A DNA stretch of 64,000 nucleotides from IMG/VR virus record IMGVR_UViG_3300045988_146577; one strand, 5' to 3'. Origin of the DNA: a virus. Its lineage: Duplodnaviria > Heunggongvirae > Uroviricota > Caudoviricetes. The notes under the pieces are model-generated. The model searched no databases. It saw only the letters and a list, made by a program, of their open reading frames with translations, and was not told the DNA's origin. This document shows positions 142 through 57,893 of the stretch, one piece after another. Every line of letters starts with the position of its first letter. Within the stretch, counting starts at the first letter, position 1. Both the position numbers and the translations under genes were made by a program.

Positions 142-1395
142 TTACGATAGCGCCTTAATGCCCAAAACCTTGCTTTGCAACTCCAACTGTTTGGTATACG
201 GTTTTGCCCGATAATAGGCTTTGATAATTTGTTCTGGCGTTGCATCGCCTGGGTCGAGTCCTTCCTCGCCCAAACATGCTACTTTGACATTAAGACCAAT
301 ACTGGTCAGTCGCCTGGCTGCGGCCATAGTGTTGCGTATAGCTTGCTTTTCACTATCCCACATCATGATCACATTACGTAATCCACGCGCCTTGAGCGTC
401 AGGAACGCGCCCAACTGATCTTCTGCATCCTGAGTGGTGTTACCAGATAGATGCATCCCGAACGTTCCTATCGGTTCCACGTAATCACGTAATGTTTCTT
501 CATCAAAAATAGCTCGTTTAACTCCCATAACATCGAACGCCCCCTCACAGACAACTACAGTCTGTTTGCCGACCGCATTATGGCCGTTGTAGAGAAACTT
601 ACCTGAAGCTGGAAGCTGCATAGGAAAGAGGTAGCGACGTTCAGCTGTACCGGTAATGTCTCGTCCCTGAAATGTCTTCATTACCCCATCCAGATCGTAA
701 ACCGGTATCAGTATTCGCATATCGAATATCTGTCCTTTAACCTGATCTGTATACGGATCTACATAGGCGTGCTTGCCTTCGACGCAGTATCGTAGGTCAA
801 AATACTTTGCCATTTCAGGCGATATGTTTCGTTCAACCAGATAGTCTGGAAGACGGCCATCTATAGGAAGCTCGTAATGACGAGGGAGTGCAACTGGCCC
901 CTCTAACTCGACTGTGCTTGCAAGCACTATCTCTTCTTTCTTTGGTGCCCACCCCTGGGAAAGAAGGGCGTTCTGCACATATTCCTCGAACTGTCGTCGT
1001 GATTTGCCGCTGTAGTGCTTGAGGAAGACCAGCTTATTGAACTGAATCTCTTCGGGATGATCACCAGCGAAGCATTTACCGACGCCACTGGTCAGATTGA
1101 AATATACCTTCCAGTTGGAGCTGCCACATACCGGACACTCCTTGATATTCACTTCACGACCGCGAGTACTCACGCCTCCACGTCGATAAACGATACCTTC
1201 AGTATCCAACCATTGTTCAAAATCTAATTCGGTAATTAGCTCTTTCAGCTCGCTCACGATAATTCCACTTTTAACAGGCAATATTGTGACCAACCTAAAT
1301 GTTGATATAACATAAAGGCTCATGTGTTTTTCTTTTGTGGTTTGGCAAAAGAAAAGTTGTTTCACCAATGAATCAAGCGTGGAGGTGTTCTCCAC
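142..1395 (-). CDS. DnaG-like DNA primase (zinc-finger + TOPRIM)
   Basis: CPVCGSS...C zinc-binding motif followed by TOPRIM-like acidic motifs (VVVCEGAFDVMGV); immediately downstream of the helicase gene. Confidence 0.75.
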   Translation of the reverse strand: MENTSTLDSLVKQLFFCQTTKEKHMSLYVISTFRLVTILPVKSGIIVSELKELITELDFEQWLDTEGIVYRRGGVSTRGREVNIKECPVCGSSNWKVYFNLTSGVGKCFAGDHPEEIQFNKLVFLKHYSGKSRRQFEEYVQNALLSQGWAPKKEEIVLASTVELEGPVALPRHYELPIDGRLPDYLVERNISPEMAKYFDLRYCVEGKHAYVDPYTDQVKGQIFDMRILIPVYDLDGVMKTFQGRDITGTAERRYLFPMQLPASGKFLYNGHNAVGKQTVVVCEGAFDVMGVKRAIFDEETLRDYVEPIGTFGMHLSGNTTQDAEDQLGAFLTLKARGLRNVIMMWDSEKQAIRNTMAAARRLTSIGLNVKVACLGEEGLDPGDATPEQIIKAYYRAKPYTKQLELQSKVLGIKALS

Positions 1396-1404
1396 GCTTA
1401 TTTT

Positions 1405-2745
1405 TTAGGTAACGTCTAAGATTCGCTCAATGAAGCGCATTTGTTCGAGGTTTTGTTTAACGCGAATGCTGATCCCTCCCTGCTGGTTACGTGAACCAGC
1501 AAAGTAGAGACGAGCCTCTCCTTTCGCTTCTTCTTCTTCGGTTTTGTTGATCGTTATTACCAGGTCAGCAATACGTACTTTTTCGATGTTGTCGGCAGCG
1601 TGCATCATTGTGGCAACTTCTGACGCGCCACCTTCACGGTTTGTCTGCGATGCCGTGATACCAGCAACGTTGTGTTTGTCATAAAGAGCACGTAAGTCGG
1701 TATAGATACTACGTATGTTGGCGCGATCATCACGAAGGTCATAACTGGCACGCATCAAATCTGCATAGTCGACAACAACCATGTCAGGCACCATGCCATT
1801 GGCTTTCATGCTGTTAAGCATACGATCCAGATCTGCCGGTGACATACTTCCTGACGGACGCTCAACAACCCACAAACTACCAATCCCCTTCGTGGCTCCC
1901 AACTCTGCCAACTTACGATGAACCTCATCGCGCCGTTCCACCAGCTTGGACATTTCTGTCTCCGACAATCTTGCATCAAAACGGTCGGATAAAATGGTGG
2001 TGTGAACCTCCAGCGAGAGATACAGAACATTGTAGCCAGCAAGCGTTGCGTTTATGGAAAACTCACCCATTGCGGTCGATTTACCGGATTTAGCGAACCC
2101 CATGAAGAGCACCATTTCGCGCTTTGCCCAGCCTTTTTGGTACAGCAACCTATCGAGCAGAGGGAGTCCAGTTGTAATGCTGTTTGGCACATACTCCTCT
2201 GAAGCCTCATATTCACGCGCTTTCAATCGCTCACTTGCGGAGGTGTAGTAGTCATAGATTCCGGTCGCTTCGTTCGATCCAATCTGCTGAACCTTGGCCA
2301 TGATTGCCATCGCCCCCTGAAAGTCGCCTTTCTCTTTCAGTTCAGCAGCCTTAATCAGAGCATCATCAAACGCTACGCTTTTTGCGAAGGTTGATACCTG
2401 GTCAACCATGTACGAGGTATCGGACAATTTTTCTGCAAGGATGCGCTTAAACGCAGCAACAACATCGGCGAATAGTTCCTCACGGATAGTCTTATCGCGT
2501 TTCGCACGCTTAAGCATATCCAGAATTGCAGATGAAGAGGGCGCGCTCTTGTACATACGGTAATAGCCCGAAACCATATTAACCAATATGGCATTGGCCA
2601 CATTGGCAAATTGGCTAGGCACAACCAGATCTCCCGCACGAGTAAGAAACTCGTGATCACGACAAAAATATGCCGTCAGTCTGTTCTGGAAATCTTCATC
2701 AAACTCTTCGGACAGCCCGCGTCCTGTATGGCAAAGTTCGGTCAT
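1405..2745 (-). CDS. DnaB-family replicative helicase
   Basis: RecA-like core with Walker A GFAKSGKST and Walker B-like VVVDYADL; AAGGA RBS; class-1 palindrome in leader. Confidence 0.75.
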   Translation of the reverse strand: MTELCHTGRGLSEEFDEDFQNRLTAYFCRDHEFLTRAGDLVVPSQFANVANAILVNMVSGYYRMYKSAPSSSAILDMLKRAKRDKTIREELFADVVAAFKRILAEKLSDTSYMVDQVSTFAKSVAFDDALIKAAELKEKGDFQGAMAIMAKVQQIGSNEATGIYDYYTSASERLKAREYEASEEYVPNSITTGLPLLDRLLYQKGWAKREMVLFMGFAKSGKSTAMGEFSINATLAGYNVLYLSLEVHTTILSDRFDARLSETEMSKLVERRDEVHRKLAELGATKGIGSLWVVERPSGSMSPADLDRMLNSMKANGMVPDMVVVDYADLMRASYDLRDDRANIRSIYTDLRALYDKHNVAGITASQTNREGGASEVATMMHAADNIEKVRIADLVITINKTEEEEAKGEARLYFAGSRNQQGGISIRVKQNLEQMRFIERILDVT

Positions 2746-2764
2746 GTGCTTTCCTTTGTTTTTT

Positions 2765-2780
2765 AAACAAATTGTTTTCT
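2765..2780 (-). promoter_or_regulatory. class-1 palindrome (AGAAAACAA-N-TTGTTT) in helicase leader
   Basis: AAACAAATTGTTTTCT about 20 nt upstream of helicase ATG. Confidence 0.5.
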
Positions 2781-2788
2781 AGTATTAG

Positions 2789-3529
2789 TTAATTAGATAG
2801 GGGATCAATAAACCGCCGTGCTTCTTCCAGTTCTTCTGGAAAGTGGGCGGAAATAAGGCGCTCTGGAACGATTTCCATTAGCCAGATAGCGGAGAAAATT
2901 GCGCGTATGCGCTTGCTGCGGGGGATGGTGCGTAAACGCTCCAGAATCCACTCAAAATAGCTTTCCTGAATCGGGTTGAACTGCATGTCTCCCATATGCT
3001 TAAAGCTAACGAGAGAGTCATCCAGACGGGTTGTTGCGCGTCTGGCTAATTTCTCTTCGAATATCTCAATCAGCTCTGGCTGCCACAAATGCTGTGGGCG
3101 CGGCAGCTTGTCCCACAGCCGTCGTGCAGCTGCGGAAAGAACGGTGGAGATAAAGTAGTCGTATGAGCAGCAATAGCGATCCGCAAACTGGCGTGCTTTC
3201 CATAGCGACGTTTTATTGGCAGTCGACAACTCCTGATAAGGCAGGCGTTTTAACCCGGTGGTGAACGGAGCTGTTTCAAAGTGTTCGCGACCGTGCGTCA
3301 GCATGATATTTGAGTACTGACGTTTGTATGCCTCCGTAAAAAGACAGGTGGCCATGAGAGGATGCATGTCGCGGTAATCAAACCACTTCGTCTCGAAGAG
3401 TTCAGCCTCGTCTTTACAGCGCGACAAACCAATGTTTTCAGCGACCCACTTGTCCATAACAGCGGTATTCCACTCTGTCATGAAGTCGTACTGGTCGTTG
3501 TCGATGGTATCGAAAAAGATTTGGCTCAT
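2789..3529 (-). CDS. hypothetical protein (replication-module neighbour)
   Basis: ORF track 2789..3538 (GTG); ATG at 3529 has AGGTGA RBS; no recognisable motif. Confidence 0.45.
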   Translation of the reverse strand: MSQIFFDTIDNDQYDFMTEWNTAVMDKWVAENIGLSRCKDEAELFETKWFDYRDMHPLMATCLFTEAYKRQYSNIMLTHGREHFETAPFTTGLKRLPYQELSTANKTSLWKARQFADRYCCSYDYFISTVLSAAARRLWDKLPRPQHLWQPELIEIFEEKLARRATTRLDDSLVSFKHMGDMQFNPIQESYFEWILERLRTIPRSKRIRAIFSAIWLMEIVPERLISAHFPEELEEARRFIDPLSN

Positions 3530-3540
3530 GTGGCTCACCT

Positions 3541-3562
3541 GGTAGGTAGTTACTTACTTATC
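3541..3562 (-). promoter_or_regulatory. class-2 palindrome
   Basis: GGTAGGTAGTTACTTACTTATC about 15 nt upstream of RBS of 2789 gene. Confidence 0.45.
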
Positions 3563-3645
3563 ACAATGAGCGGATGATAGCGACTGGTGGCAGTTTTTGG
3601 AAGTGGAAACGGAAGGGAGTTGTTCTGGTGGTGTCTTTTAAAAGA

Positions 3646-3700
3646 CCTGCTTCCGTATATATTTAATAAGTTACTTATTATTTATATATACAGAAGCAGG
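3646..3700. repeat. 55-bp AT-rich imperfect palindrome (copy 1)
   Basis: CCTGCTTCCGTATATATTTAATAAGTTACTTATTATTTATATATACAGAAGCAGG; near-identical copy at 35258-35312. Confidence 0.6.
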
Positions 3701-3805
3701 CTCCTAATGGATACCAAGAACAACATAATTTGACTCCAACCCCAGATGCTATGTCATTGACAGATTTATCAAGGGAGATCATGTTAGAATCAGTGTTTTA
3801 GCCTC

Positions 3806-4879
3806 GTGGATATTGTCACCATGCGCATGAATAGACTTCCAGGATATGGCCTTACCGAACTGGCTTTTTGGCCTCAGCCTAAATATGAACGGAATAAATG
3901 GTCGATGTTCTGTCTGAAACTCCGTAATGATGGAACCCTTGCTTGGTATCGGCGATATGTTGATCGTGGTATGCCAAACCACGCTTTTGATGACGACTAC
4001 GATAACTATCCTGAAGCAAGAAAAGCGGCATTAGAGCTGAATAAAAACGTGAGCTTTGACATTGAAAAACTTCCTCTATCTATGTTTCAAAAGAAGTCAT
4101 TGCGTTTGAAAGTTGACAAAGCACTCAAAGCCAAATCACGTCTCATGGATGAAGAGCATATAATGCTCAACGAAGCAATTAAGGCACACGCCAACGATCC
4201 GCGAGTGACATTAAATGAGTTAATAATTAACCCAGATTACGAAACTTTGCGTCAACCCCTTTTTGACGTGCTAAGCGAGATGCCTTACTTACATTTTGTT
4301 TTTCTTCCCAAATTCCAAGTTTCACTTCAACTCGTTGCTCCTAACACTTGGGAATGTTCATATAACAACAAAGCTAAGACAGCGAAGATCTGCTACCAAG
4401 AACGCATAGCCAGAGGTTTTGGTTTATCAGGCGCTGCACATTGGGGAAAAACAAAAGCGACTATTCGCTCAATGCTTCTGCCGCGTGCTAACCGGTTACT
4501 GCAACTCGCCAGCGTAAAAAGAATGCTGGATGAAGCTCTCAGGAATGGGCAAAAGGTACTGGTTGTTGGCAACTTTGTTTTCTGGTTTGAGGACAAAAAT
4601 CAGGTAGGTTGGAGTGTTAAAGTTGCTAGCGAAAGCGAAACCACCTCAAGAGGCAATACGCTCTGGAAAGAAGGAACTATCATTTCAAAAAATCACGGTC
4701 GAATTGTCGTGCTGCCGTATACAAAAGAAAACGGTAAACATGTAAAAGGTTATACCAAGAATGCCCCTAACGACGGCAACGCAATTCCGAGACATAAGGA
4801 TGAGTATGTCGAGTTGCCCTTTGAAATTTTGGATGGTGACTTGATGTTCAGTCTGTTCGGTGAGCTTAACTACGAATAG
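3806..4879 (+). CDS. hypothetical protein (357 aa)
   Basis: Long ORF divergent from replication genes; GTG start per ORF track; no recognisable domain. Confidence 0.45.
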   Translation: MDIVTMRMNRLPGYGLTELAFWPQPKYERNKWSMFCLKLRNDGTLAWYRRYVDRGMPNHAFDDDYDNYPEARKAALELNKNVSFDIEKLPLSMFQKKSLRLKVDKALKAKSRLMDEEHIMLNEAIKAHANDPRVTLNELIINPDYETLRQPLFDVLSEMPYLHFVFLPKFQVSLQLVAPNTWECSYNNKAKTAKICYQERIARGFGLSGAAHWGKTKATIRSMLLPRANRLLQLASVKRMLDEALRNGQKVLVVGNFVFWFEDKNQVGWSVKVASESETTSRGNTLWKEGTIISKNHGRIVVLPYTKENGKHVKGYTKNAPNDGNAIPRHKDEYVELPFEILDGDLMFSLFGELNYE

Positions 4880-4939
4880 CTTTCATAGAACGAAATATTT
4901 CTAAGGCTGTCCAATGCAGACCAGCCTTAGAGATTTATA

Positions 4940-5299
4940 TCAACCTTTCTTCATCAACTCTCGTTTGATTTCATCGGTACGCATCGTGACATCGGCAGCG
5001 GTGATCGCCTCATTCAATTTCACGATGTCCTCGATTTCCTGCGGTGACTTCTCTGCCAGATGGAAAATGGCTGCTCGAATCACGTCAGAACGAGTGAACT
5101 TCTCGAAGCGAGGGATGAACTTCATCATCTCCAGCAGTTCGAAGTATTCGTCCTCCAGTGACATTGTGCGGCTTTTAATTTTCTCTTTGCCACGAGTCGG
5201 GCGTCCCTGTGGTCTGACTGGTTGGCGCAAAGGAGTTGTGTTCTTAGCCGGTGCATCAGGCTCTTTGCGCTTTGCTAGGTCACCCATTTTCATGGACAT
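4940..5299 (-). CDS. small basic protein cotranscribed with ParA; candidate centromere-binding partner (ParG/ParB-like role)
   Basis: Start overlaps parA stop (5299); Lys/Arg/Pro-rich N-terminus then predicted helices; position-based inference. Confidence 0.4.
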   Translation of the reverse strand: MSMKMGDLAKRKEPDAPAKNTTPLRQPVRPQGRPTRGKEKIKSRTMSLEDEYFELLEMMKFIPRFEKFTRSDVIRAAIFHLAEKSPQEIEDIVKLNEAITAADVTMRTDEIKRELMKKG

Positions 5300-5967
5300 T
5301 ATTCTTCTTCCTCCAGACTCAACAGATAATCTACAAATTCTTCAAACTCGGCTTCCGCCTTTTTGTCGCGCTCGCTACCGGTCATTTCAAAGATAGAACG
5401 ACCAGACTCTTCCGCATCATCATAGACGTTGCGGTTATATAGATTGACTGGCGCAGACTCGATTCCAAACGTCTCAACAATCTCTTTAGCCGCCAGAATG
5501 CGAGACACTTGTGATGGCAAAGCCGGGCACTGGTTCATGACCGCGCGGACCTTCACTTTATCGTTTACATTGCGAACATTGTCGATAATAGGATCGATGT
5601 CACGTAAAGATTTCAAATCACGACGCTTAGGACGCAGCGGGATAATGATAACGTCAGCCATCAGCATCGCTTGTCGCTGAATTTCGGAGTCGAAGCCACC
5701 AGCATCTACCACTACAAACTCAGCTCTACCCTGAAGCGATTTTAGGTGCTTAATGATGTCATCCTGAACGTATGCAAAAGGAATCAGCTCAAGGTCTTCG
5801 TTCTGTCGACGGTCTTCACACCAGCTCGTTGTCGTGCGCTGAATATCTATATCGGTAATATAAACCTTCTTCTTCTTTTTGACTTTCATGCAAACGGCAA
5901 TTTGCTGGGCAACGGTGGATTTGCCAGGCCCGCCCTTTGTGCCGCCAACCACAAAGATCTTGGTCAT
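5299..5967 (-). CDS. parA: ParA-family partition ATPase (small, type Ib-like)
   Basis: Deviant Walker A VVGGTKGGPGKST, 222 aa; class-1 palindrome about 36 nt upstream of start. Confidence 0.8.
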   Translation of the reverse strand: MTKIFVVGGTKGGPGKSTVAQQIAVCMKVKKKKKVYITDIDIQRTTTSWCEDRRQNEDLELIPFAYVQDDIIKHLKSLQGRAEFVVVDAGGFDSEIQRQAMLMADVIIIPLRPKRRDLKSLRDIDPIIDNVRNVNDKVKVRAVMNQCPALPSQVSRILAAKEIVETFGIESAPVNLYNRNVYDDAEESGRSIFEMTGSERDKKAEAEFEEFVDYLLSLEEEE

Positions 5968-6002
5968 TGGAGAGTTCCCTTTGCGTATATAATTATCGTC
6001 TG

Positions 6003-6018
6003 AAACAACTTGTTTTCT
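6003..6018 (-). promoter_or_regulatory. class-1 palindrome in parA leader
   Basis: AAACAACTTGTTTTCT about 36 nt upstream of parA start. Confidence 0.5.
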
Positions 6019-6285
6019 TATATGTGATATAGCCTAAATGCCTACGGCTGCGGTGTAAAGGTTAAATGGTAGGTTGTGATTAACAATTGGCAATCATAGC
6101 TTGTATTTGTCTGTTGAAAAAAGTAACAATGACCTCTATATTACAAGTACGGTGATATGCCGTACACAATTTGATAATGCACACGTAATGGGCTATAGCC
6201 TTTTAAAGTAATTTTTGAGTCGAAAACTCAGTTTGAACAGAGGAGATTGATGGCCTTCCTACATCACGGCCATCAGGAGGAATAC

Positions 6286-6555
6286 ATGTCAGCACTAAAA
6301 AAGCAGCGCATCGATTTGAGATTAACCGATGACGATAAAAGCATCATCGAGGAAGCTGCCGCAATGTCTAACCAGAGCATTACTCAGTTTATGGTTAGCA
6401 GTGCATCTGAACGTGCCGTGAAAGTTATAGAGCAACACCGTAGACTAGTTCTGAATGAAGAATCCTGGAATCTGGTTATGGACGCTATAAGCAATCCTCC
6501 GGCACCGAACGACAAGCTGAAACGAGCTGCTGATCGTCTGAAAAGCATGGAGTAG
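6286..6555 (+). CDS. DUF1778-type antitoxin (TacA/KacA-like)
   Basis: About 90 aa ORF immediately upstream of GNAT toxin; AGGAGG RBS 7 nt before ATG at 6286 (ORF track starts 6247). Confidence 0.7.
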   Translation: MSALKKQRIDLRLTDDDKSIIEEAAAMSNQSITQFMVSSASERAVKVIEQHRRLVLNEESWNLVMDAISNPPAPNDKLKRAADRLKSME

Positions 6556-6562
6556 TTTACTC

Positions 6563-7084
6563 GTGAGCAATACAACGATAGAGATTTTCTCTGGAGAGAA
6601 AGATTATGATCTAAACGGTTTTGATTGCGGCGAAGAGTCACTAAACGCCTTTTTAGCCAACCACTTAAAAAGGCAGCATGAGGGAAAAATTCTTCGTGCT
6701 TATGTGCTTTGCACTCAAGAAGAAAGGCCAAAAGTGTTAGGATATTACACTTTGTCAGGTAGTTGTTTTGAAAAGGAGTCCTTACCTTCAAGAAGCAAAC
6801 AAAAGAAGGTTCCTTATCGGAATGTTCCAAGTGTTACTTTGGGTAGGCTGGCTTTGGACAAGTCCCTTCAAGGTCAAGGATTTGGCTCAATGCTTGTAAC
6901 ACATGCAATGCGCGTTGTGTACAATGCATCTCTTGCTGTAGGCATTCATGGACTTTTCGTTGAGGCGTTAAATGACAAAGCCAAGGCGTTTTATAAAAGT
7001 TTAGGCTTTATCCAGCTGGTTGGTAACAACGAGCGTTCTTTGTTCTATCCTACAAAATCTATCGAAAAATTGTTCGAAGAATAA
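6563..7084 (+). CDS. GNAT-family acetyltransferase toxin (TacT/AtaT/KacT-like, aminoacyl-tRNA acetylating family)
   Basis: 173 aa GNAT fold with GQGFGSML motif; GTG start 8 nt after antitoxin stop; classic antitoxin-toxin order. Confidence 0.75.
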   Translation: MSNTTIEIFSGEKDYDLNGFDCGEESLNAFLANHLKRQHEGKILRAYVLCTQEERPKVLGYYTLSGSCFEKESLPSRSKQKKVPYRNVPSVTLGRLALDKSLQGQGFGSMLVTHAMRVVYNASLAVGIHGLFVEALNDKAKAFYKSLGFIQLVGNNERSLFYPTKSIEKLFEE

Positions 7085-7116
7085 TGTGTTCCCCTCATTT
7101 GAGGGGAACTTCGACA

Positions 7117-7302
7117 TCACCAACCACAAACCCTCTCTCCCATCGTATTGTGAAAAAGGATTTGGCGTTCGGTTTCTTCAGTCATTACATCATTATTGCT
7201 GATATAGATAGGCTCAGCCCCATCGCAGAACAACACGCTGGCTGTTTGTGGTTTAATGACGCACCCACTTATCATACAACTCACGATGAACGGCAGAAGC
7301 AT
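7117..7302 (-). CDS. putative o-spanin (Rz1-like lipoprotein), overlapping Rz in another frame
   Basis: Signal peptide MLLPFIVSCMISGC with lipobox-like ISGC; embedded in the 3-prime end of the i-spanin ORF; start moved to M11 of track ORF 7117..7332. Confidence 0.4.
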   Translation of the reverse strand: MLLPFIVSCMISGCVIKPQTASVLFCDGAEPIYISNNDVMTEETERQILFHNTMGERVCGW

Positions 7303-7504
7303 CTTTCTGACGTATTTTACTGCTCGTCTCATTCACCACTTTCACTGTGTTTTGAAGTCGTTTTCTGTCTTCCTGTTTTGCCTTCTCTTCCATTGCTCGT
7401 CGCGCCGCATTCCCGCCCATCGTGTAAGCGCCGACAAGAACGAAAAGAACGGCAGCCAGCGTAATCAAAGCAACTTTTAGCTTTGTCATCAGGCTGCCTA
7501 GCAT
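7253..7504 (-). CDS. putative i-spanin (Rz-like)
   Basis: N-terminal transmembrane helix then charged coiled-coil segment; directly downstream of putative endolysin. Confidence 0.5.
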   Translation of the reverse strand: MLGSLMTKLKVALITLAAVLFVLVGAYTMGGNAARRAMEEKAKQEDRKRLQNTVKVVNETSSKIRQKDASAVHRELYDKWVRH

Positions 7505-7505
7505 A

Positions 7506-8225
7506 TTAGACCATCCCTTTCTGGTGTTTTCTTACCTGCGACCAGGCAATGAATCCTGCCACAACAATAGTGGCAATACCGAAGATGATGCGTACTGTAT
7601 CCCCGCTAGAGATATGACCTTGTGCTTTATCCATAGCAGCGGAAACCTGCGGCATAACATCGGCCAGCTGCGCCAGACCAATACCTGCTGTAACAGTTGC
7701 GCCTGCGGTTTCTTTAGTTACAGGAACAGCCTTCACGGTTTTCACCGGCTTAACAACGCCAGCTCGACGCAGACCTTCCTCAATAACTTCTGCCGCATAC
7801 CAGGTGTTCAGCGTTTTTAGCGGACCTCGCCCATTCTCATGGCGAATGATTGCCTCAACCAAAGGTCGAAGAATGTCGTAATCATGCAGATCGATAATCA
7901 TGTCTGCGGTTACACCAACGGCTTTAGACACCTCATTAATGTAGGCGTCAGTATTATTTTCATTCGGCGGTGCCCAGCGTTCAATAACTTCACGAATGGT
8001 ATCGATACTTGAGCCGTCTTTTGCGCGACGTTTGTCGTGGTAGGTAATTAGAGTCACCGCCAGCGCACGAATCCCCCAAACAGGGTCTTTAAACGTGCAA
8101 AAGCGCGGTTCGTCTGGATTCGCAACCAGACCTTGCCACGGTGATCCTTTATCAAGATTACCGGGGTTATTATTACGAATGCCTCTCGGAGTCTTCATCC
8201 TTGATCTCCTGTTATTGCAGTCCAT
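7506..8225 (-). CDS. putative lysis-cassette protein (possible endolysin; C-terminal transmembrane helix)
   Basis: Position between holin-like and spanin genes; conserved-looking GIRNNNPGNL motif; C-terminal hydrophobic helix. Function is position-based. Confidence 0.4.
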   Translation of the reverse strand: MDCNNRRSRMKTPRGIRNNNPGNLDKGSPWQGLVANPDEPRFCTFKDPVWGIRALAVTLITYHDKRRAKDGSSIDTIREVIERWAPPNENNTDAYINEVSKAVGVTADMIIDLHDYDILRPLVEAIIRHENGRGPLKTLNTWYAAEVIEEGLRRAGVVKPVKTVKAVPVTKETAGATVTAGIGLAQLADVMPQVSAAMDKAQGHISSGDTVRIIFGIATIVVAGFIAWSQVRKHQKGMV

Positions 8226-8547
8226 TTTTTACGCCATACGCGGCTAACCCCAAAAGCAGTGCAGTAATAATGAACGACGTTATTTTAGAAACAATGCCGC
8301 CAAAGAACCCACTGGAGATGGAATCTAACCGGTTAAGGAGTTTGTCCAGATTGGAGTGTTGAATACTATGTTGCGCCGGGGTCATATCACCAAAGTAGGT
8401 TTTCAGCTGATCATTGACCTCCTGGCCAATTTCTTCACGTAGCTCTTTACCTAATTTACCAACAACCTCCCGAGCAACGATCGCGGCAATACGCTCAACT
8501 TGCTCTGTTGTAACGCCCGCCATCTCGTTCGACATGTTTTCCTCCAT
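8212..8547 (-). CDS. holin-like small membrane protein
   Basis: 111 aa, single C-terminal TM helix, first gene of the lysis cluster, preceded by a terminator and a class-2 palindrome. Confidence 0.35.
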   Translation of the reverse strand: MEENMSNEMAGVTTEQVERIAAIVAREVVGKLGKELREEIGQEVNDQLKTYFGDMTPAQHSIQHSNLDKLLNRLDSISSGFFGGIVSKITSFIITALLLGLAAYGVKNGLQ

Positions 8548-8737: not shown

Positions 8738-11700
8738 TCAGTTACTTGTTGCCCCAACAGTACCGGCAAATTTCAGCCATTGACCTGACGGACTTCTATT
8801 ACTGCGGTAGTGATAAACGAGGATTGCGTTTGTCACTCCACCGTAATCAGCTTTATGTGACGTTGTTAAACGAATTGTATAATCACCGTTAGGTAGATTA
8901 AAAACTTCGATTATAGATTCTGCTAATTCTACAGCACCAAATCCCGTTATATTGTTGATACTGCCAGCATTGAATCCCATAGCATCGCCAAAGCCAATCC
9001 AATATCTTTTGCTAAACGCCCCATTTGATTTAAGGTGGCTAATGAATGTGGACAAACTCATGCCCATATCCCCACCTGAAATAGAGGAAGTTCGCACAGT
9101 CATGCTTGGAAGAGCACTGCTCTTCACATAGGAACTTAGAAGATTCGTTACCTCTGTTTTCGTATAAGCATTAAGGTTAGCCGCAGTCAAAGTAATATCG
9201 GCAGAGCCATCAAACGCCACACCAGCAATTTTCCTTGCTGTCTGCAATTTTGTGGCGGTTGCAGCATTACCAGTAGTGTTCTGGTTCCCATCTGCATTCA
9301 CACCTGGGATGCTGTCTTTTTTAGTATATATCTGAGTCCAGTCCTCTTCGAACCCATAGCCATCACGTGATGAACGGTAATACAATCCACCATTTTTATA
9401 ATGCGCTCGGATTTGGAGAGTCCGACAACTACCTACGCCTATATAAAAATTTGCAACGATATAAGAATCCCCGGAGCGTGTAACATTATACGCACCTGAT
9501 TCGGCATTCCACGGGACCGCACCACTAGTATCGGCATAAGTTCCAGTAGCGCGTCGAGCAAAAGCAGATACATTTGCAGCTGTTAGTGTTATATCAGCAG
9601 AACCATCAAAAGACACGCCGCTTATTTTTCTAGCAGTTTGCAACTTCGTAGCTGTTGAAGCATTACCGTTCAAACTACCATTTACGCCACCAGTAACATT
9701 TAGTCCATTACCAATGGACACAGCACCGCTGGTATTATTAATTGTAATAGGTCGCAAACCGTTCCATGAACCTAATGTGTTTCCTGATGCTGTTAGCATG
9801 AAATATGTGTTCGATCCATCATTACGGATAAAGAACCCAAAGCTACCGTAAGCAATGCGGAAACCATTTGCATATTTTGAAACGATCTCACCAGAAGACG
9901 TTAATCCGCCAGTTAACGCTCCTCCAGATAGTGGTAAAGCTCCGACATCAGCCGCAGTAGGCTTGTTTTTAGTGTTATACGCTCTGCGCCATCCTGGTGA
10001 ATAGCTCGTCCCGTTAAATACATAGATAAACTCCGCATTAGTGAGAGCACCAGAGACACTCGTCGTTGTGGCCGTTGTTATACGGATCGTATAATTGTTT
10101 GAGCTACTACCGTTATTAAATACCTCAATAACTGCGCCAGCCAGTGGAATAATGCCGCATCCTGTTTCGCTGTCTGGTATGGATGCACTATTTGCATACG
10201 CCCAAGCACAACGCGCTATCCATGCCTTTGCATTAAAAGCACCATTATTTTGCAATAACGTCACTAACTGTGCTGTTGTTATTGCTCCGCCATTACTTCC
10301 TGTAGTTAACCAACCAGTAGGAGATGCCGGGCAACCTATATTTGTTGGCGACAAGGAAATATTTGCCGAGCCGTCAAACGACACCCCATTGATAGTACGC
10401 GCAGTCTGCAACTTCGTAGCAGTAGCCGCGTTGCCCGTTGTATTCTGATTACCAGTCGTATTAACACCTGGCAAATTAATATTCGCAGTACCATCAAAGC
10501 TCACGCCGCCGATAGTTCTTGCCGTCTGAAGTTTTGTAGCAGTTGCAGCATTACCAGTGGTGTTCTGATTACCCGTAGTATTTACACCTGGAAGGTTGAT
10601 ATTTGCAGAACCGTCGAAACCAACTCCACCGATAGATCTTGCCGTCTGCAATTTCGTTGCTGTACTTGCATTACCATTTAATGTTCCGGTGATCCCACCA
10701 GTAACAGACAACGGACCTGAAACTGTTCCTCCGGTTGTTGGCAGTGCTCCAATATCTAACGGCGTCGGTTTCTGATGTGTGCTATACATCGTATAAACAA
10801 CACCATCGGTAACGCTGGAAGGCTTACTAGCTGAATATGTTGGCGATGTATAAATAGAAACTGTCGCATTTGCAGTACAATCCCAATGGATATTTACACG
10901 AGTCGCATAATTGCCAATCTCAACGTAAATATCATATGTATCGCCGGATGTGTTGATCCAGGCGAAATTCGTTAATCCGACAGCTGTACGCTTCCACAAA
11001 GCACCTGTAATCCCTTTGGGGTTTCCATTGCCTGCTCGTAGAACCAGTTCTGAAATGCCTGCCTGATGTGGGGAGCCGACGTTGTAACCAGCGCCACCAA
11101 TCAATGCGATGTAAACGATGGAACTCGCTTGTGGCATTGTAACAGTAGCCAGTTTGAACCACCCGGCCCCGCCAGAGAAAGACATCGTTATTGAATTTAA
11201 AGTACCAATATCTTTCGGCGTTAATGTGATATCCGCAGTCAGTGCTTTACCGTTAACTTTTCGGTTAGATGGCACCCTGCTATTCGCATTGTCATTGGCT
11301 GCTTTAACTGCTTTTGGCGTTGCGGCCAGCGATTCACTGGTGCTATCAACAGCACTGCTAAGTTTCACAACACCTTTAGTTGTAAGGCTTGCGTCTTCCA
11401 TCGCAACTGCACCGGCAATCTCTTCAGCACGATCAGCAGCAGCTTCCGCACGGGTCGCAGCGGATTCAGCAGCAGTTTTGCTCTGAGATGCTGCCGTCGC
11501 ACTGCCTGCCGCCTCTGTCGCCTTCGTGGATGCTGTCGTGGCGCTGCCCTTCGCTGCGGACGCTTGTCTGGTCGCCTCATCTTTTGAAGCAGACGCCGAT
11601 GATGCCGATGACGCCGCCGAACTGGCGGACGATGCGGCAGCCGTTTTTGAGGATTCTGCGCTGGTTTCCGACGCTTTCGCGTTCGTTTCGGATGTCTTCG

Positions 11701-12763
11701 CTGCGGAAGCTGACCTCGCTGCTGCGCTGGCCTGTTCAGTGGCTTCGCCAGCCTTCGTTGTGGCTGTTGAAGCGGATGATGCGGCGCTTTCTGCCGATTT
11801 TCCGGCGGCGGTGGCACTGGCTGAGGCCTGCCCGGCACTTGTTGACGCGGCACTGGCAGACGACGCAGCCGCTGTTTTTGAGCCTGCCGCAGCTGAGGCG
11901 CTCTGTCCCGCTGCCGTCTCAGAAGACCTGGCGTTCGCCTCGGACTTTTTTGCCGCCTTCGCGGAATTTCCTGCCGCCGTTGCCGAGGAAGCGGCACTAC
12001 TGGCGCTCGAGGATGCGTTCGTTTCTGATGATTTCGCTGCCTCTTTTGAGGCCGCCGCATCCCGGGCTGAGGTGGCAGCTTCTGACGCCTTCGTGGTCGC
12101 GGTGGATGCAGAAGTGGCTGCAGATTTTTGTGACGCTGCAGCATTCGTTTCAGACGTTTTCGCGGCACCGGCACTGGTGGCCGCCGCGCTTTTTGAGGAC
12201 TCTGCAGCGGATGCACTTTGAGACGCTTGAGAGGCTTTTTCTCCAGCGGTATTGGCGCTTTCTGCTGCTGCGGCAGCACTGGCCGCCGCCTCACGAGCTT
12301 TGTCGCCAGCAGCATCAATCGCGTCAGTGTTATTTTTATACCACTCAACGTTTTCGTTGTGCTCGTTGACGATCTGCATTAGCGGCTTAACGGTCACTTC
12401 TGTACCGTCTTCACGCTCGATTGTCACCTCATCCAGAGCAGTCAACCAACTGCGCATGGACTTGGAATCAGCCGACATACGCGACATTAGTGCTGTAAAG
12501 CGCGCGCTAAACTGTGTTAAGTCGCCTTCATAGGTCGTAATGATTCGGCACGGAACTTCAGACTGAGTTTCGCCGGTATAAGGTTCTGAGAGAACAATGT
12601 TCGTATCGCTTATTACGCGCTTGATCTCATACAGCTTATTGTCGGGGCCAATGACGATCATCCCCGGCAACACACCATTAGCTGTTACGTTCCAGGCTGT
12701 CCCTGCCCCAACCAGAGTATTGCTACCCTGTGTAAATGTGATAGTACCTTCCCTGTACCACAT
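8738..12763 (-). CDS. tail fibre protein with repeated GNAATATKLQTAR (phage tail-fibre repeat) units and a long Ala/Ser-rich low-complexity segment
   Basis: 1341 aa; at least 5 copies of NTTGNAATATKLQTAR-type repeat; directly downstream of J-like gene. Confidence 0.8.
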   Translation of the reverse strand: MWYREGTITFTQGSNTLVGAGTAWNVTANGVLPGMIVIGPDNKLYEIKRVISDTNIVLSEPYTGETQSEVPCRIITTYEGDLTQFSARFTALMSRMSADSKSMRSWLTALDEVTIEREDGTEVTVKPLMQIVNEHNENVEWYKNNTDAIDAAGDKAREAAASAAAAAESANTAGEKASQASQSASAAESSKSAAATSAGAAKTSETNAAASQKSAATSASTATTKASEAATSARDAAASKEAAKSSETNASSSASSAASSATAAGNSAKAAKKSEANARSSETAAGQSASAAAGSKTAAASSASAASTSAGQASASATAAGKSAESAASSASTATTKAGEATEQASAAARSASAAKTSETNAKASETSAESSKTAAASSASSAASSASSASASKDEATRQASAAKGSATTASTKATEAAGSATAASQSKTAAESAATRAEAAADRAEEIAGAVAMEDASLTTKGVVKLSSAVDSTSESLAATPKAVKAANDNANSRVPSNRKVNGKALTADITLTPKDIGTLNSITMSFSGGAGWFKLATVTMPQASSIVYIALIGGAGYNVGSPHQAGISELVLRAGNGNPKGITGALWKRTAVGLTNFAWINTSGDTYDIYVEIGNYATRVNIHWDCTANATVSIYTSPTYSASKPSSVTDGVVYTMYSTHQKPTPLDIGALPTTGGTVSGPLSVTGGITGTLNGNASTATKLQTARSIGGVGFDGSANINLPGVNTTGNQNTTGNAATATKLQTARTIGGVSFDGTANINLPGVNTTGNQNTTGNAATATKLQTARTINGVSFDGSANISLSPTNIGCPASPTGWLTTGSNGGAITTAQLVTLLQNNGAFNAKAWIARCAWAYANSASIPDSETGCGIIPLAGAVIEVFNNGSSSNNYTIRITTATTTSVSGALTNAEFIYVFNGTSYSPGWRRAYNTKNKPTAADVGALPLSGGALTGGLTSSGEIVSKYANGFRIAYGSFGFFIRNDGSNTYFMLTASGNTLGSWNGLRPITINNTSGAVSIGNGLNVTGGVNGSLNGNASTATKLQTARKISGVSFDGSADITLTAANVSAFARRATGTYADTSGAVPWNAESGAYNVTRSGDSYIVANFYIGVGSCRTLQIRAHYKNGGLYYRSSRDGYGFEEDWTQIYTKKDSIPGVNADGNQNTTGNAATATKLQTARKIAGVAFDGSADITLTAANLNAYTKTEVTNLLSSYVKSSALPSMTVRTSSISGGDMGMSLSTFISHLKSNGAFSKRYWIGFGDAMGFNAGSINNITGFGAVELAESIIEVFNLPNGDYTIRLTTSHKADYGGVTNAILVYHYRSNRSPSGQWLKFAGTVGATSN

Positions 12764-35612: not shown

Positions 35613-36503
35613 TTATGCCGGTAAAGCAATTTCTAACGGTTTATCCAAAGGTTGTTTGTCGAATGCCAGCAGTGGCAGCGTGTCAGGCAGTCGACGGCCA
35701 AAGTCAGGGTTTCGGTACACACCATACAACGGAGACGTAAAGCTCAGGTTGTGAATGTCCTTGAGCAGCTTCACAATGCTGGCCTCGTCCACCAGACTGT
35801 CGGCAATGTCCTGAATCGTCGTGCCACGATTCCGCCCAGCTTTTGCCAGGGAACTGTTCTTGTGGTAGTCCGCCACCAGATCACGCAATGCACGGCGACG
35901 ACGAGACTCGCTCATTGCGAACAACTCTTTGACGATCGCCTCGTTATCACCCGGGTCGGAACGGAAATGGCGCTGGAATACACGCAGTGCACTTTCATAG
36001 CTCTTCGGTCGCTCAGGGCGGATGAACTTAAACCCTGCTTTCATGGCGAAGGGATTGTATTTGCTCATCGAGGACTGGATCTCAATGATTGGCCGGTCAT
36101 GCATCCTGCTAACCAGGTTAATCATTCGATAAGAGACGCCTACGCCACGATACTGAGTATCCACAACTGAGCGACTGATCACCGCAAAGTTGTTATTCAC
36201 GTACCGACCCCAGTACTGGTTAGCCACGGTGGTATTAGTGGTTGGTTTCAACTTAGGAAACATGCGGTGGCGAGGTGCCAACAGTAGTTTCGGGTAAGCC
36301 ATAACCACGACGCCCACCAGACGGTCATCAAGTTCGCAGCGATAGTAAGTTGGCGCGAAAGGTTTGCCGTCTGTTTTGTAGTGAAGCGACTTAAGAGCGT
36401 GCCAGTCCTCTACAGTTCCCTTTGTGACAGTCATTCGCTCCAGAAAGTCCAGATGACGCGGAAACTCTTCAGGGCGGTAGCGTTTAATGATGATGTCCGT
36501 CAT
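35613..36503 (-). CDS. hypothetical protein with GNAT-like motif
   Basis: VISRSVVDTQYRGVGVSYRMINLV resembles GNAT motif A; otherwise unassigned. Confidence 0.3.
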   Translation of the reverse strand: MTDIIIKRYRPEEFPRHLDFLERMTVTKGTVEDWHALKSLHYKTDGKPFAPTYYRCELDDRLVGVVVMAYPKLLLAPRHRMFPKLKPTTNTTVANQYWGRYVNNNFAVISRSVVDTQYRGVGVSYRMINLVSRMHDRPIIEIQSSMSKYNPFAMKAGFKFIRPERPKSYESALRVFQRHFRSDPGDNEAIVKELFAMSESRRRRALRDLVADYHKNSSLAKAGRNRGTTIQDIADSLVDEASIVKLLKDIHNLSFTSPLYGVYRNPDFGRRLPDTLPLLAFDKQPLDKPLEIALPA

Positions 36504-37165
36504 AAATGAACCTCATCATGACTACCATTGTGATATTCCACCTTCACGCGTTCTTTGTAGTGCTTGGTGATCTGCATATCCGGGCGCAGCGCGTTCTTCA
36601 GGTCTTCGTGAGTCGTCGCCACCATTACCGTTGCACCAACCTTTCGAGCGGCACGCTGGAGGTTAGATGCCACAACCTGAGCGGTTACACGGTCTAGAAC
36701 AGCACCGAACTCGTCAGCAGCCCACACTTTAGCGCCTGACTCAATCAGTTTGGCAATCTTGAGACGATATTTCTGACCGTCTGACATTTCAGAAGGCTTG
36801 CGAACAAACAGATATGCATCGTTCAGACCAGCCATAGATAACAACCCAAGCGCATCGCTGGTCGTTTTGCCCAACTGATCGATGACGTTAACCTCATTAT
36901 CGAAGGTAAAATCATCGATGGAGGCTACAGACAGCCCTTCATCCTTCATCTGTCGTTGCAACTCGCGCAGCACAACGGATTTGCCGGAACCGGATTGGCC
37001 GGTGATGTACACCACATCGCCCTGCTTCACTTCCAGCTCCAGATTGTCGTAAAGCGTCCACTCTTTTTCGTCCAGGCCAAGCCCGAACGACTCAGCGATT
37101 TCCAACGTGCGAGTGGTTTTATTTACGCGTGTCTGAAACGATACGTTGATGATGTATTTGCTCAT
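36500..37165 (-). CDS. ABC-type ATPase (stand-alone nucleotide-binding domain)
   Basis: Walker A GQSGSGKS, signature-like MSDGQKYRL, Walker B VWAADEFGA, H-loop TTHEDL. Confidence 0.65.
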   Translation of the reverse strand: MSKYIINVSFQTRVNKTTRTLEIAESFGLGLDEKEWTLYDNLELEVKQGDVVYITGQSGSGKSVVLRELQRQMKDEGLSVASIDDFTFDNEVNVIDQLGKTTSDALGLLSMAGLNDAYLFVRKPSEMSDGQKYRLKIAKLIESGAKVWAADEFGAVLDRVTAQVVASNLQRAARKVGATVMVATTHEDLKNALRPDMQITKHYKERVKVEYHNGSHDEVHL

Positions 37166-37863
37166 GCAGCCATCTCCCCGGAAGAGATCTTCTCCGCATA
37201 TGCCACAAATGCGTCTACCCCGCTTTCTCCCGTCATTTCTTCCATGTGGGCAAGCAAATCACCAACAACAATGGCAGAGCCAGCAGGGAGCGTTTTAAAG
37301 CCCAATACGTCGACAACACGTACTTCTTCCGCTGCAACTTCACGACTGATCTCGGTGTGTTCATCCTTCTGTCGTTTAGTTTCTTCGCCAAGATCGATAA
37401 CTAGCGAGTCGGTGTCCATTTCTTCTGTCATGCTGCCAACGAGAACATTCAACTCACGCTCTTCAAAGCCGAAAACCTCGATATCGTCCAGAACAAGCGA
37501 CTCAAGCTCTTTCTGTAGCTTAATTGCATCGTAATCAATGCTGGCAAGTCGGTTATCTTCAAGGCGCTTCGCACGAACCTCGTCATCACTGAGATCATCG
37601 CGAACAATAACCGGTACGCGCTCAAGTCCAGCAAAAATTGCAGCCTCACGGCGGCCGTGGCCAGTAATAATTACGTCGTTCTTATCGACCGTAATTGGCT
37701 GGTCAAATCCGCGCTTTTTAATGGCTGCGGCCAGATCTCGGATCTGCTGTTCATCATGCTTTTTGGCATTCATCTCATAGGGAATAAGATCTGCCGGGTC
37801 GCGATATACGATTTCAAACTTTTTGGTCATTACATACGCTCCTTGTAGTAGTCGACCAGCCAC
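37162..37863 (-). CDS. ParB-like nuclease-domain protein
   Basis: ParB/Srx N-domain motif VIITGHGRREAAIFAGLERVPV; acidic C-terminus. Confidence 0.65.
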   Translation of the reverse strand: MAGRLLQGAYVMTKKFEIVYRDPADLIPYEMNAKKHDEQQIRDLAAAIKKRGFDQPITVDKNDVIITGHGRREAAIFAGLERVPVIVRDDLSDDEVRAKRLEDNRLASIDYDAIKLQKELESLVLDDIEVFGFEERELNVLVGSMTEEMDTDSLVIDLGEETKRQKDEHTEISREVAAEEVRVVDVLGFKTLPAGSAIVVGDLLAHMEEMTGESGVDAFVAYAEKISSGEMAA

Positions 37864-38528
37864 ACCAGAGCCTCACCAGCGTTCTCCATTTCATTACCGG
37901 TGTTAATAGCCTGCTCTTTGATGATGTTTTTTATGGTTTCTGCAACACGATCTGACGCATCGAAAGTTACTTTGAAGCGCATGGTCTGATGTTCCGCACC
38001 CACACGTTCGGTTTTCTCTCGTTTGTCGGTATCGACAGGCTCATCACTACCACGAGACAACGCCTCCAGTGCTTCAAGGTCGATTGCCGCCTCTTTTGCT
38101 AAAACCATCGAGATTTCGTCGTCATACGGGGCGATTTCAGACAGTTGATAGTCAAGTTCTGACTGAATTTCTTCAATGAAGCGTTGCAATGCGATTTGGT
38201 CGTCTTCACCGTATCGCTCGTTGTCCACCAGTGACATCTGTTTAGCTACGACATCGCTAATTTTGCCCACAGAAAGCACCGGAACCGTTGAAATTCCTTG
38301 CTCAATAGCAGCACGCCAGCGATGTTCGCCGCCGAGGATTTCAAAAAATCCATCTTCAAGTTCACGAGCCAAAATTGGCTTAAAAAAGCCCAATTTTTCG
38401 ATAGAACCTTTCAGTTTTTCAAAATTCTGCGCACCAACCGAATTGGTGTTCCAGGTATTCGGGCGAAGGTTGGCAACATCAACCTGCAAAATCGTGATTT
38501 TTACATCCATTTTATTGCTACAATCCAC
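37830..38528 (-). CDS. ParB-like nuclease-domain protein (second paralog)
   Basis: ParB/Srx N-domain motif FEILGGEHRWRAAIEQGISTVPV; GTG start per ORF track. Confidence 0.65.
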   Translation of the reverse strand: MDCSNKMDVKITILQVDVANLRPNTWNTNSVGAQNFEKLKGSIEKLGFFKPILARELEDGFFEILGGEHRWRAAIEQGISTVPVLSVGKISDVVAKQMSLVDNERYGEDDQIALQRFIEEIQSELDYQLSEIAPYDDEISMVLAKEAAIDLEALEALSRGSDEPVDTDKREKTERVGAEHQTMRFKVTFDASDRVAETIKNIIKEQAINTGNEMENAGEALVWLVDYYKERM

Positions 38529-41065: not shown

Positions 41066-41449
41066 TAGTCTACATGCAGGTGTATGAGAGCACCTGCATG
41101 TGACATTCATCACATTTTTGAATGTATATACCTTCGGCTGAAAAAGATCTTGATAGGCTGAATGATATTTGTAGGCTTCGCCTCCGAAGAAATTCGGAGG
41201 ATATATGCGACAATTTATAAAAACGTGTGACCTAAGAAATATAGTAGATGATATTGCATGTGATGAAATTAGCAAAAAAGAGAAGAACAAAAACGCCAAT
41301 TAACGCTATCTACCTATAAATCTGAAGAGTTCAATAGGATGCATATCTGAAACACGCCCTCGACAATACCAAAAAGATTTGTCGAGGGCGTCGGGCTTTC
41401 CCTATGTCTGAACGATTAAATTTTACAGCAATTAAATATTTTGTATATG

Positions 41450-42250
41450 TTATTCTTCTGGTGGCACGACAAAATCATCGAGCTTATTCTTTTCGTCTCG
41501 AAGCAACTTGATTTCTTCTTCTGTTATACATTTGTCATAATCTGTTTGTTCAGAATGGCACAGTGTAACCGCGAATGGATAGCCGGTATAAGACAGTCCC
41601 CTAACAGGTTCTAGTTCACCGTTGTCTTTTTTCCTAAATTTGTAAAAGTCAGGAGTGTCATAATTGGTGACGCTAACAAGAGCATATTTATCATTTTCTC
41701 TTGCATACACTTCACTAACACCTCTCGATTCGCCCAACTCTCTACTCACATATGTCGAATCACTTGCAGCATCAAACACAGCCTGACCTAATGGAGTTTT
41801 TTTTAAATCATCTATTTTCTCTTTTTCCTTCCTGATTTTAGATTCGTTTTCCAGATAAAGTTTCACACCGTTTTCTTTGCATGCTAGATTTTGGCGTTCA
41901 AAACGTAATCGTTCTCTTGCCGAGTTGGTACTTTTATCCATTGTAACGAATACAATCGGGTTACGTTCACGAACATCAAAGATGTGCGCATTGAATGCGG
42001 TCGCACCTGTATAGGCATTCAAGACGTTTTTGCCATTCACTTCTCCACATACCATATATGAATAGCTATTTTCACCTAACTGAATAGCTCGCATATTCGT
42101 GAACCGACCAGCATCAGGATCTAGCAGTGTAGAGCGAATATCCTTTTCAACTAGATCTATGGCTCGCTCTTCATCAGAATCACAACCTGTTAATAGTAAA
42201 GCCGCTATTAACAATGCTAATGAGTATTTTTTATTCACCCCATTCTTCAT
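41450..42250 (-). CDS. lipoprotein (AT-rich moron)
   Basis: Signal peptide plus lipobox LLLTGC; low GC; own terminator hairpin downstream. Confidence 0.6.
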   Translation of the reverse strand: MKNGVNKKYSLALLIAALLLTGCDSDEERAIDLVEKDIRSTLLDPDAGRFTNMRAIQLGENSYSYMVCGEVNGKNVLNAYTGATAFNAHIFDVRERNPIVFVTMDKSTNSARERLRFERQNLACKENGVKLYLENESKIRKEKEKIDDLKKTPLGQAVFDAASDSTYVSRELGESRGVSEVYARENDKYALVSVTNYDTPDFYKFRKKDNGELEPVRGLSYTGYPFAVTLCHSEQTDYDKCITEEEIKLLRDEKNKLDDFVVPPEE

Positions 42251-54636: not shown

Positions 54637-54652
54637 AGCGTTTTGCCCTCAA

Positions 54653-54672
54653 TACTGTTCATTTATACAGTA
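54653..54672 (-). promoter_or_regulatory. LexA (SOS) box
   Basis: TACTGTTCATTTATACAGTA = CTGT-N8-ACAG consensus, about 17 nt upstream of HumD-like start. Confidence 0.75.
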
Positions 54673-54755
54673 TACATGAAAGAAGCTCACTCAGTGCAAC
54701 TGATCGGTACATAGCACCAGACAAAGGAACGTTATTTTCTCGAACAAGAAAAGGT

Positions 54756-54771
54756 AGAAAACAAATTGTTT
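54756..54771 (+). promoter_or_regulatory. class-1 palindrome fused to terminator hairpin (54772-54792)
   Basis: AGAAAACAAATTGTTT + AAGGCCAC-aacta-GTGGCCTT. Confidence 0.45.
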
Positions 54772-54808
54772 AAGGCCACAACTAGTGGCCTTAATGGAGA
54801 AGGGATGC

Positions 54809-57822: not shown

Positions 57823-57893
57823 GTGTTTTTCTCTTCTTTGCTGTTACATAAGCACTACCAAGTGCTGGTTATTTTTCACAAATAAGAAAAGGT

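Follow-up and report, generated by a model that had tools for sequence, protein, structure and literature searches.

Maintenance modules and cargo genes in a 64-kb viral sequence assigned to the SSU5_pHCM2 group of phage-plasmids

The IMG/VR record IMGVR_UViG_3300045988_146577 (Caudoviricetes), analyzed here as a single stretch of 64,000 nucleotides (the window), opens with a replication operon, a partition operon, a toxin-antitoxin (TA) pair, and a lysis cassette, followed by the virion genes of a siphovirus (Table 1). Two cargo slots flank the partition (par) operon, slot 1 at 3712 to 4936 and slot 2 at 6075 to 7124; both are absent from Salmonella phage SSU5, and in this element they are occupied by an orphan gene encoding 352 amino acids and by the TA pair, respectively. 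A preliminary description of this DNA had suggested a phage-plasmid-like element and proposed comparison with known phage-plasmid families. That comparison placed the window in the SSU5_pHCM2 group. The window is very likely an unbroken 64-kb piece of a circular phage-plasmid of ~110 kb that belongs to the Cyrano/pLF82 clade of Escherichia coli elements, with positions 142 to 8547 forming the replication and maintenance block.

Table 1. Features of the window, with coordinates, strand, and principal supporting evidence (aa, amino acids)
Feature	Position	Strand	Evidence
DnaG-like (toprim) primase, 371 aa	142-1257	-	PHROG 47, 2.4e-65
DnaB-family replicative helicase, 446 aa	1405-2745	-	PHROG 19, 1.7e-87; Pfam DnaB_C, 3.7e-13; TIGR03600 phage_DnaB, 1.3e-13
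Conserved 249-aa protein, first in helicase-primase operon	2789-3538	-	PHROG 2500, 2.8e-113
Conserved intergenic region ending in palindrome	3539-3705		Kept in Cyrano, SSU5, and pJN2-26
352-aa orphan, slot 1	3821-4879	+	PHROG 22329, 1.3e-256
Basic 119-aa ParA partner, candidate centromere-binding protein	4940-5299	-	TAATG overlap with parA
ParA, small ParF-like (type Ib) partition ATPase, 222 aa	5299-5967	-	PHROG 164, 7.7e-51; NCBIfam ParA_partition, 2.9e-33
68-bp noncoding block upstream of parA, candidate par promoter/operator and centromere	6001-6068		Invariant but for one base
DUF1778/TacA-type antitoxin (AtaR/KacA-like), 89 aa	6286-6555	+	Pfam TacA1, 8.6e-26; KacA 5zgn_A, 1.7e-41
GNAT acetyltransferase toxin (AtaT/KacT-like), 173 aa	6563-7084	+	AtaT 6gts, 6ajm, 1.4e-79; KacT 5zgn_C, 3.9e-75; Pfam GNAT
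Lysis cassette	7253-8547	-	Rz spanin 7253-7504, endolysin 7506-8198, holin 8212-8535
Siphovirus virion module: tail fiber, J-like tip, I/K/L/M-like tail, tape measure, capsid, portal, large terminase	8738-35140	-	Intact
metG	50918-52951	-	Inside NZ_CP141583.1 and Cyrano
apbC/mrp	53109-54209	+	Inside NZ_CP141583.1 and Cyrano

Positions 7325 to 71759 of the E. coli plasmid NZ_CP141583.1 (111,954 bp, typed IncFIB) were collinear with the entire window at 96 to 99% identity by local BLAST, and in a gene-by-gene comparison the replication, partition, lysis, and virion proteins were full length and 98 to 100% identical at the amino acid level, apart from a tail fiber at 90%. The first 8 kb of the window matched 737 plasmid records, 703 of them non-mobilizable, as well as 11 phage records. 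Over the same 8 kb, identity was 98.6 to 99.1% to Escherichia phages CMS-2020a and Cyrano (pLF82; 98.6% for the latter, with 85% of bases aligned) and ~82% to SSU5. When SSU5 was compared with the whole window, 62.8% of bases aligned at 78.6% identity, and 46 of 71 genes were in common. SSU5 and pHCM2 define a recognized phage-plasmid group (Pfeifer et al. 2021; PMC7969092), whose members are assigned to type IncFIB and occur frequently in E. coli and Shigella (bioRxiv 10.1101/2025.09.12.675607). The element differs little from many plasmids already deposited and from an experimentally characterized phage; SSU5-group phage-plasmids are well catalogued, and one more member adds nothing in principle.

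Free plasmids also dominate the distribution of these genes. The replication module was found in 254 of 5,426 complete E. coli genomes, at 257 plasmid places versus 3 chromosomal places, and the one chromosomal match of the three that was inspected covered just 26% of the query and is a fragment. For the full region flagged in the preliminary description (142 to 5967), the corresponding counts were 490 and 3. Cyrano has been reported at 5.5 episomal copies per chromosome (PMC9928086). Taken together, extrachromosomal replication of the element is supported as strongly as sequence comparison allows. The earlier suggestion of an SSU5/N15-like extrachromosomal lifestyle therefore stands in its SSU5 half, given collinear free plasmids, an episomal Cyrano, and the 257-to-3 distribution, but not in its N15 half. 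Relative pJN2-26 was deposited as a circular record, and no protelomerase is annotated in the collinear plasmid or among the genes of SSU5, with no profile search aimed at protelomerase having been made. The element corresponds to the circular SSU5 type and not to N15, which is linear.

A conflict had been seen between such a lifestyle and an apparent position beside chromosomal metG. Were the window instead part of an ordinary integrated prophage, metG-apbC would be the chromosomal flank at one end, and the divergent arrangement of these two genes is indeed that of the E. coli chromosome; the same explanation could draw on a tyrosine recombinase encoded in relatives ~10 kb past the window's left end, and on the 3 chromosomal matches among the 5,426 genomes. 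However, phage-plasmid sequence flanks metG-apbC on both sides, continuing for ~10 kb up to the window end in collinearity with free plasmids; element genes flank the pair on both sides in NZ_CP141583.1 as well, and Cyrano also carries it. Among complete E. coli genomes, the pair was 95 to 99% identical to ~215 plasmid copies versus ~90% to every chromosomal copy. The conflict disappears: in more than 200 plasmids metG-apbC is internal to the element, and its identity to any chromosomal copy is only ~90%. With the module at 257 plasmid places and the inspected chromosomal match a 26% fragment, integration as an ordinary prophage is effectively refuted for the family, and it is extremely improbable for this element.

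The metG-apbC pair is thus cargo within a phage-plasmid, not a chromosomal flank. Compared with K-12, MetG was 99.0% identical at the amino acid level with intact HLGH and KMSKS motifs, a ratio of nonsynonymous to synonymous substitution rates (dN/dS) of 0.02, and a dS of 0.24. ApbC was far more diverged (94.8% amino acid identity, dS of 1.58), so metG and apbC have different histories. The E. coli clade carries an intact second methionyl-tRNA synthetase under selective maintenance, and no paper on a role of metG in SSU5-like elements was found in the literature searched. Adjoining apbC is a lone S24 peptidase gene (UmuD/HumD-like), which begins a stretch at 54247 to 57865 that continues as a mosaic segment. 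This segment includes, among others, an open reading frame at 56198 to 57274 that fuses Ead/Ea22-like and DUF551 regions; it is missing from SSU5 and not the same as in the closest plasmid.

The preliminary description had reported no integrase in these 64 kb, and none was recovered by tblastn with the recombinase of the family, by Pfam scans of window-specific open reading frames, or in the annotation of the window-equivalent part of the closest plasmid. The tyrosine recombinase of the relatives, annotated as an integrase, lies beside a putative repressor (NZ_CP141583.1 positions 108493 to 109596 and Cyrano positions 41090 to 42190). It is 82 to 99% conserved in SSU5-type elements of E. coli and Klebsiella, and SSU5 gave no high-identity match to the E. 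coli-clade protein. An integrase just outside the window had been named beforehand as a sign against the plasmid lifestyle. Such a gene does lie there in relatives, but it does not discriminate, because the elements carrying it are free plasmids. The recombinase may act in multimer resolution or in rare integration.

The lysis cassette and siphovirus genes with lambda-like tail proteins that had been described next to the maintenance genes are present and intact. The lysis cassette follows directly after the TA pair and is intact relative to the closest plasmid; its Rz and endolysin belong to PHROG 1026 and PHROG 873, and Cyrano annotates Holin, Endolysin, Rz, and Rz1. In the virion module, all 30 of the 30 reference coding sequences were covered over 100% of their length, and no truncation was found anywhere from holin to large terminase, with amino acid identities of 90 to 100% that reach 98 to 100% outside the tail fiber. 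On induction, these adjoining genes would be expected to give siphovirus particles.

These data bear on whether the element could be a phage-derived stable plasmid that no longer finishes a lytic cycle, as opposed to a functional phage-plasmid. Most relatives were deposited simply as plasmids, one report on a Klebsiella SSU5-like element regards it as a plasmid in which phage genes are conserved (PMC8969562), and the virion yield of Cyrano is low, ~100-fold under that of the most active LF82 prophage (PMC9928086). Yet the virion, packaging, and lysis genes of the window are all full length at 98 to 100% amino acid identity to those of relatives, and the 98.6%-identical Cyrano makes virions, detected by quantitative PCR and electron microscopy, and responds to ciprofloxacin with 39-fold induction (PMC9928086). 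SSU5, in addition, was isolated as an infectious phage (PMC7969092). Loss of the lytic cycle is therefore a very unlikely description of this element, and a functional phage-plasmid is preferred.

The tail-fiber open reading frame (8738 to 12763, minus strand) encodes 1341 amino acids, versus 1194 annotated in the closest plasmid, is mostly without an SSU5 counterpart, and is 90% identical where other virion proteins are 98 to 100% identical. It has Ala/Ser-rich, repeated C-terminal modules and looks like a host-range cassette.

The replication operon comprises three minus-strand genes, in the order 249-amino-acid protein, helicase, and primase. The DnaG-like primase and DnaB-like helicase named in the preliminary description were both confirmed. 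The primase reading frame is open to position 1395, and the annotated start in relatives is a GTG at 1257; the protein is 99.5% identical to the corresponding NZ_CP141583.1 coding sequence, matches TIGR01391 dnaG at 1.8e-09, and has Pfam DNAG_N and Toprim_2 matches slightly under the cut-off. The 249-amino-acid protein had no match in Pfam, NCBIfam, or PADLOC searches but is kept as SSU5_038 and CYRAN_31, and it might be a helicase loader or accessory factor.

The intergenic region preceding this operon ends in a palindrome (3646 to 3700) with 17-bp arms and an AT-rich 21-nt center; on the minus strand, TCTTTT comes next. This inverted repeat is kept across E. coli, Salmonella, and Klebsiella elements, and similarity stops right past it, where variable slot 1 begins. 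The region from 3539 to 3705 is probably the promoter of the replication operon together with a terminator at the edge of slot 1. The palindrome itself is probably a terminator or insulator; an origin-like function is conceivable.

These genes had been called plasmid-style replication genes. The genes are there, but the primase and helicase belong to a phage-type replisome, and the plasmid initiator, RepA, is encoded outside the window. No RepA was detected in the window by tblastn; in the collinear NZ_CP141583.1, a RepA of the IncFIB type, with 91% identity to SSU5_069, is encoded at 89803 to 90858, ~18 kb beyond the window's right end. This arrangement is consistent with a split of labor in which the operon would supply the element's own replication-fork proteins, working with the products of other parts of the element, among them a DnaE-type polymerase, ligase, RNase H, and the proteins of nucleotide metabolism, while initiation in the plasmid state would be carried out by RepA.

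The small ParA and cotranscribed basic partner reported earlier are likewise present. ParA carries a deviant Walker A motif (GGTKGGPGKST) at residues 8 to 18 and has Pfam MipZ, AAA_31, and CbiA matches. Its best solved relatives are TP228 ParF (4dzz) and ParA (5u1g), at 2e-10, with the ParF alignment extending over residues 9 to 199. Its small size, its deviant Walker A motif, and the lack of an N-terminal DNA-binding domain are those of a type Ib ATPase. The stop codon of parA overlaps the start codon of the 119-amino-acid gene, and the partner is translationally coupled to parA. This partner has an isoelectric point of 9.6 overall and 11.4 over its first 45 residues. Across Escherichia, Salmonella, Klebsiella, and Citrobacter elements it is 48 to 100% identical, with invariant stretches at the N terminus (MGDLAK) and in SRTMS..FTRSDVIRAAI, and in SSU5, Cyrano, and pJN2-26 it is conserved together with parA, while the flanking slots vary.

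Several observations suggest that the partner is a ParG-like adaptor that binds a conserved block upstream of parA. An AlphaFold 2 monomer model (predicted local distance difference test score of 63) had a disordered basic N-terminal tail and helices at residues 48 to 60 and 70 to 84, and the protein weakly matched the model of the aCcr1 family of cell cycle regulators (E value of 2e-4). aCcr1 is a ribbon-helix-helix protein. The strand-helix-helix pattern, MGDLAK stretch, basic tail, and aCcr1 match together are suggestive of a ribbon-helix-helix core. Direct comparisons gave less: a phmmer search of the PDB had no significant match, the best E value in a PDB profile search was 0.44, an hhalign comparison with a ParG sequence yielded a probability of 0.1%, and the monomer model had no match in Foldseek. 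Because these searches returned nothing significant, the ribbon-helix-helix assignment is one we infer. A centromere-binding protein class unrelated to ParG is a lesser possibility.

A different role for the 119-amino-acid gene has also been implied by annotation. Cyrano labels its homologue, CYRAN_29, as a putative toxin of the RelE/ParE type; as another option, ParA could work with the products of two ParB_N-domain genes at 37.2 to 38.5 kb in the window, one of which SSU5 labels "ParB-like partition protein"; the failure to find ParG similarity in the 119-amino-acid protein fits this explanation too. The RelE/ParE identity was rejected because Pfam, PHROG, and NCBIfam searches of the protein gave no such family match and its predicted fold is a disordered basic tail plus helices, not the alpha/beta fold of RelE. 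The weak aCcr1 match, coupling to parA, and conservation with parA across genera between two variable slots also argue against it, and the ParB_N genes are ~32 kb away, in an operon with an ABC-type ATPase beside packaging genes. This alternative is accordingly unlikely, and a centromere-binding partner of ParA remains the preferred identity. The distant operon, which encodes both ParB_N-domain proteins as well as the ABC-type ATPase, is located upstream of the packaging genes at 36500 to 38510 on the minus strand.

The candidate target of the partner is a 68-bp noncoding block. Invariant runs of 43 and 24 bp within it are common to the window, Cyrano, SSU5, and pJN2-26, elements from three host genera, while the surrounding region, mostly coding, is just ~79 to 82% identical to SSU5 and Klebsiella relatives. 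A mismatch-tolerant search found no second copy of the block in the window, a repeat search found no iterated centromere repeats around par, and a promoter scan showed no enrichment over shuffled sequence. In the proposed mechanism, ParA and its partner would form a type Ib (ParF/ParG-style) segregation system in which the partner, through its predicted DNA-binding fold, would bind a cis site, for which this block is the candidate. Its flexible N terminus would then stimulate the ParA ATPase, and this stimulation would position the small number of plasmid copies along the nucleoid ahead of division.

The TA pair is divergent from the par operon, and the antitoxin is the first gene of slot 2, its stop codon ending at 6555, ahead of the toxin start at 6563. 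The preliminary description had counted a TA pair within 142 to 5967. A pair of the AtaRT/KacAT type is present, but at 6286 to 7084, just beyond that region. The toxin matched 6gts_A over residues 1 to 172 and is ~72% identical to AtaT, as judged by eye from the printed alignment. By analogy, the pair is expected to be an addiction module that works through acetylation of charged tRNA: on loss of the element, the labile antitoxin would decay, and the GNAT toxin would acetylate charged tRNA, resulting in postsegregational killing. A role in abortive infection is an alternative to addiction. AtaT is reported to target Met-tRNAfMet. The possibility that the AtaT-like toxin and the extra methionyl-tRNA synthetase are functionally linked was considered and dropped, because metG is also present in relatives without the TA pair.

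The orphan in slot 1 had no match in Pfam, NCBIfam, PADLOC, PDB, or BFVD (the last two by Foldseek), and Pfam was also blank for distant relatives that share its C-terminal domain. In relatives, slot 1 holds GIY-YIG, DUF2971, or P-loop NTPase genes. The orphan family is compact, strongly conserved, and widespread in Gammaproteobacteria; it comprises 140 clusters at 50% identity, of which ~25 are full length, and members ~50% identical to one another extend from Escherichia to Vibrio, Aeromonas, Pseudomonas, and Shewanella. The homologues are always stand-alone genes, at sites typical of moron or defense genes: one in a Vibrio island lies beside TIR and NERD-kinase-helicase genes; one in a Pseudomonas prophage lies between tail-tube and tail-chaperone genes, adjoining SMEK_N and SLATT_4 genes; and those in Salmonella and Aeromonas prophages adjoin the integrase. 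The AlphaFold 2 model is confident for residues 1 to 225 only and leaves unmodeled the most conserved part, the C-terminal third, which contains the motif SKNHGRIVVLPY..GHTKNAP. A defense or exclusion role is plausible. As a tentative suggestion, the orphan might be a new single-gene phage-exclusion or defense protein, or a fitness "moron" of another kind, which is passed from one mobile element to another.

Further cargo was found at 42353 to 42874 (plus strand), where the window encodes a full-length homologue of the phase-1 flagellin repressor FljA (Pfam Flag1_repress, 3.5e-80). This protein could alter flagellar expression in the host.

Some observations weigh against assignment of the window to a maintained circular phage-plasmid. 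The window starts and ends inside the element, which means that it shows no junction whatsoever, and the physical state of this particular molecule is not readable from 64 kb. RepA is missing from a window that spans ~64 of 110 kb, the relatives encode a tyrosine recombinase, so that occasional integration is possible, and the par locus combines an absence of iterated centromere repeats with a partner for which similarity could be detected neither to ParG nor to any centromere-binding protein with a solved ribbon-helix-helix structure. Set against them are the collinear plasmids, the experimentally studied Cyrano, and the intact gene content described above. The phage-plasmid had been correctly recognized from sequence alone, and the lone apparent anomaly, metG, is cargo.

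Within the E. coli/Shigella clade, Cyrano (OV696614), NZ_CP141583.1, CMS-2020a, and PhiR41_1 share 97 to 99% nucleotide identity with the window, and the clade has the same gene order: primase, helicase, par, KacT-type TA pair, lysis, virion, and metG-apbC. Slot 1 of Cyrano holds a different gene of 267 amino acids on the opposite strand, whereas that of the window holds the 352-amino-acid orphan, and the closest plasmid, NZ_CP141583.1, differs in its 90%-identical tail fiber and in the mosaic window segment at 54.8 to 57.9 kb. The window shares its backbone with SSU5 (NC_018843) and pHCM2, including the par operon with the block upstream of it, the replication operon, and the modules for lysis and the virion. 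Present in the window but missing from SSU5 are the TA pair, the 352-amino-acid orphan, and metG-apbC-S24.

The lifestyle of P1 and N15 is that proposed here, a temperate phage that persists as a low-copy plasmid and encodes its own partition system, but their backbones are unrelated to the window. P1 uses type Ia ParAB/parS and Cre-lox, and N15 is linear, with a protelomerase. At the level of single modules, the par operon resembles TP228 ParF-ParG in its small deviant-Walker-A ATPase, for which ParF is the best solved relative, in its small cotranslated partner with a flexible basic N terminus, and in the expected location of the bound site upstream of the operon. Neither in sequence nor in fold is the partner detectably similar to ParG, its model has two extra C-terminal helices, and no short-repeat array like that of the ParG system was seen. 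The AtaRT, KacAT, and TacAT systems have a toxin and an antitoxin homologous to those of the window, encoded in the same antitoxin-first operon; unlike those described systems, the pair reported here occupies one of a phage-plasmid's variable slots.

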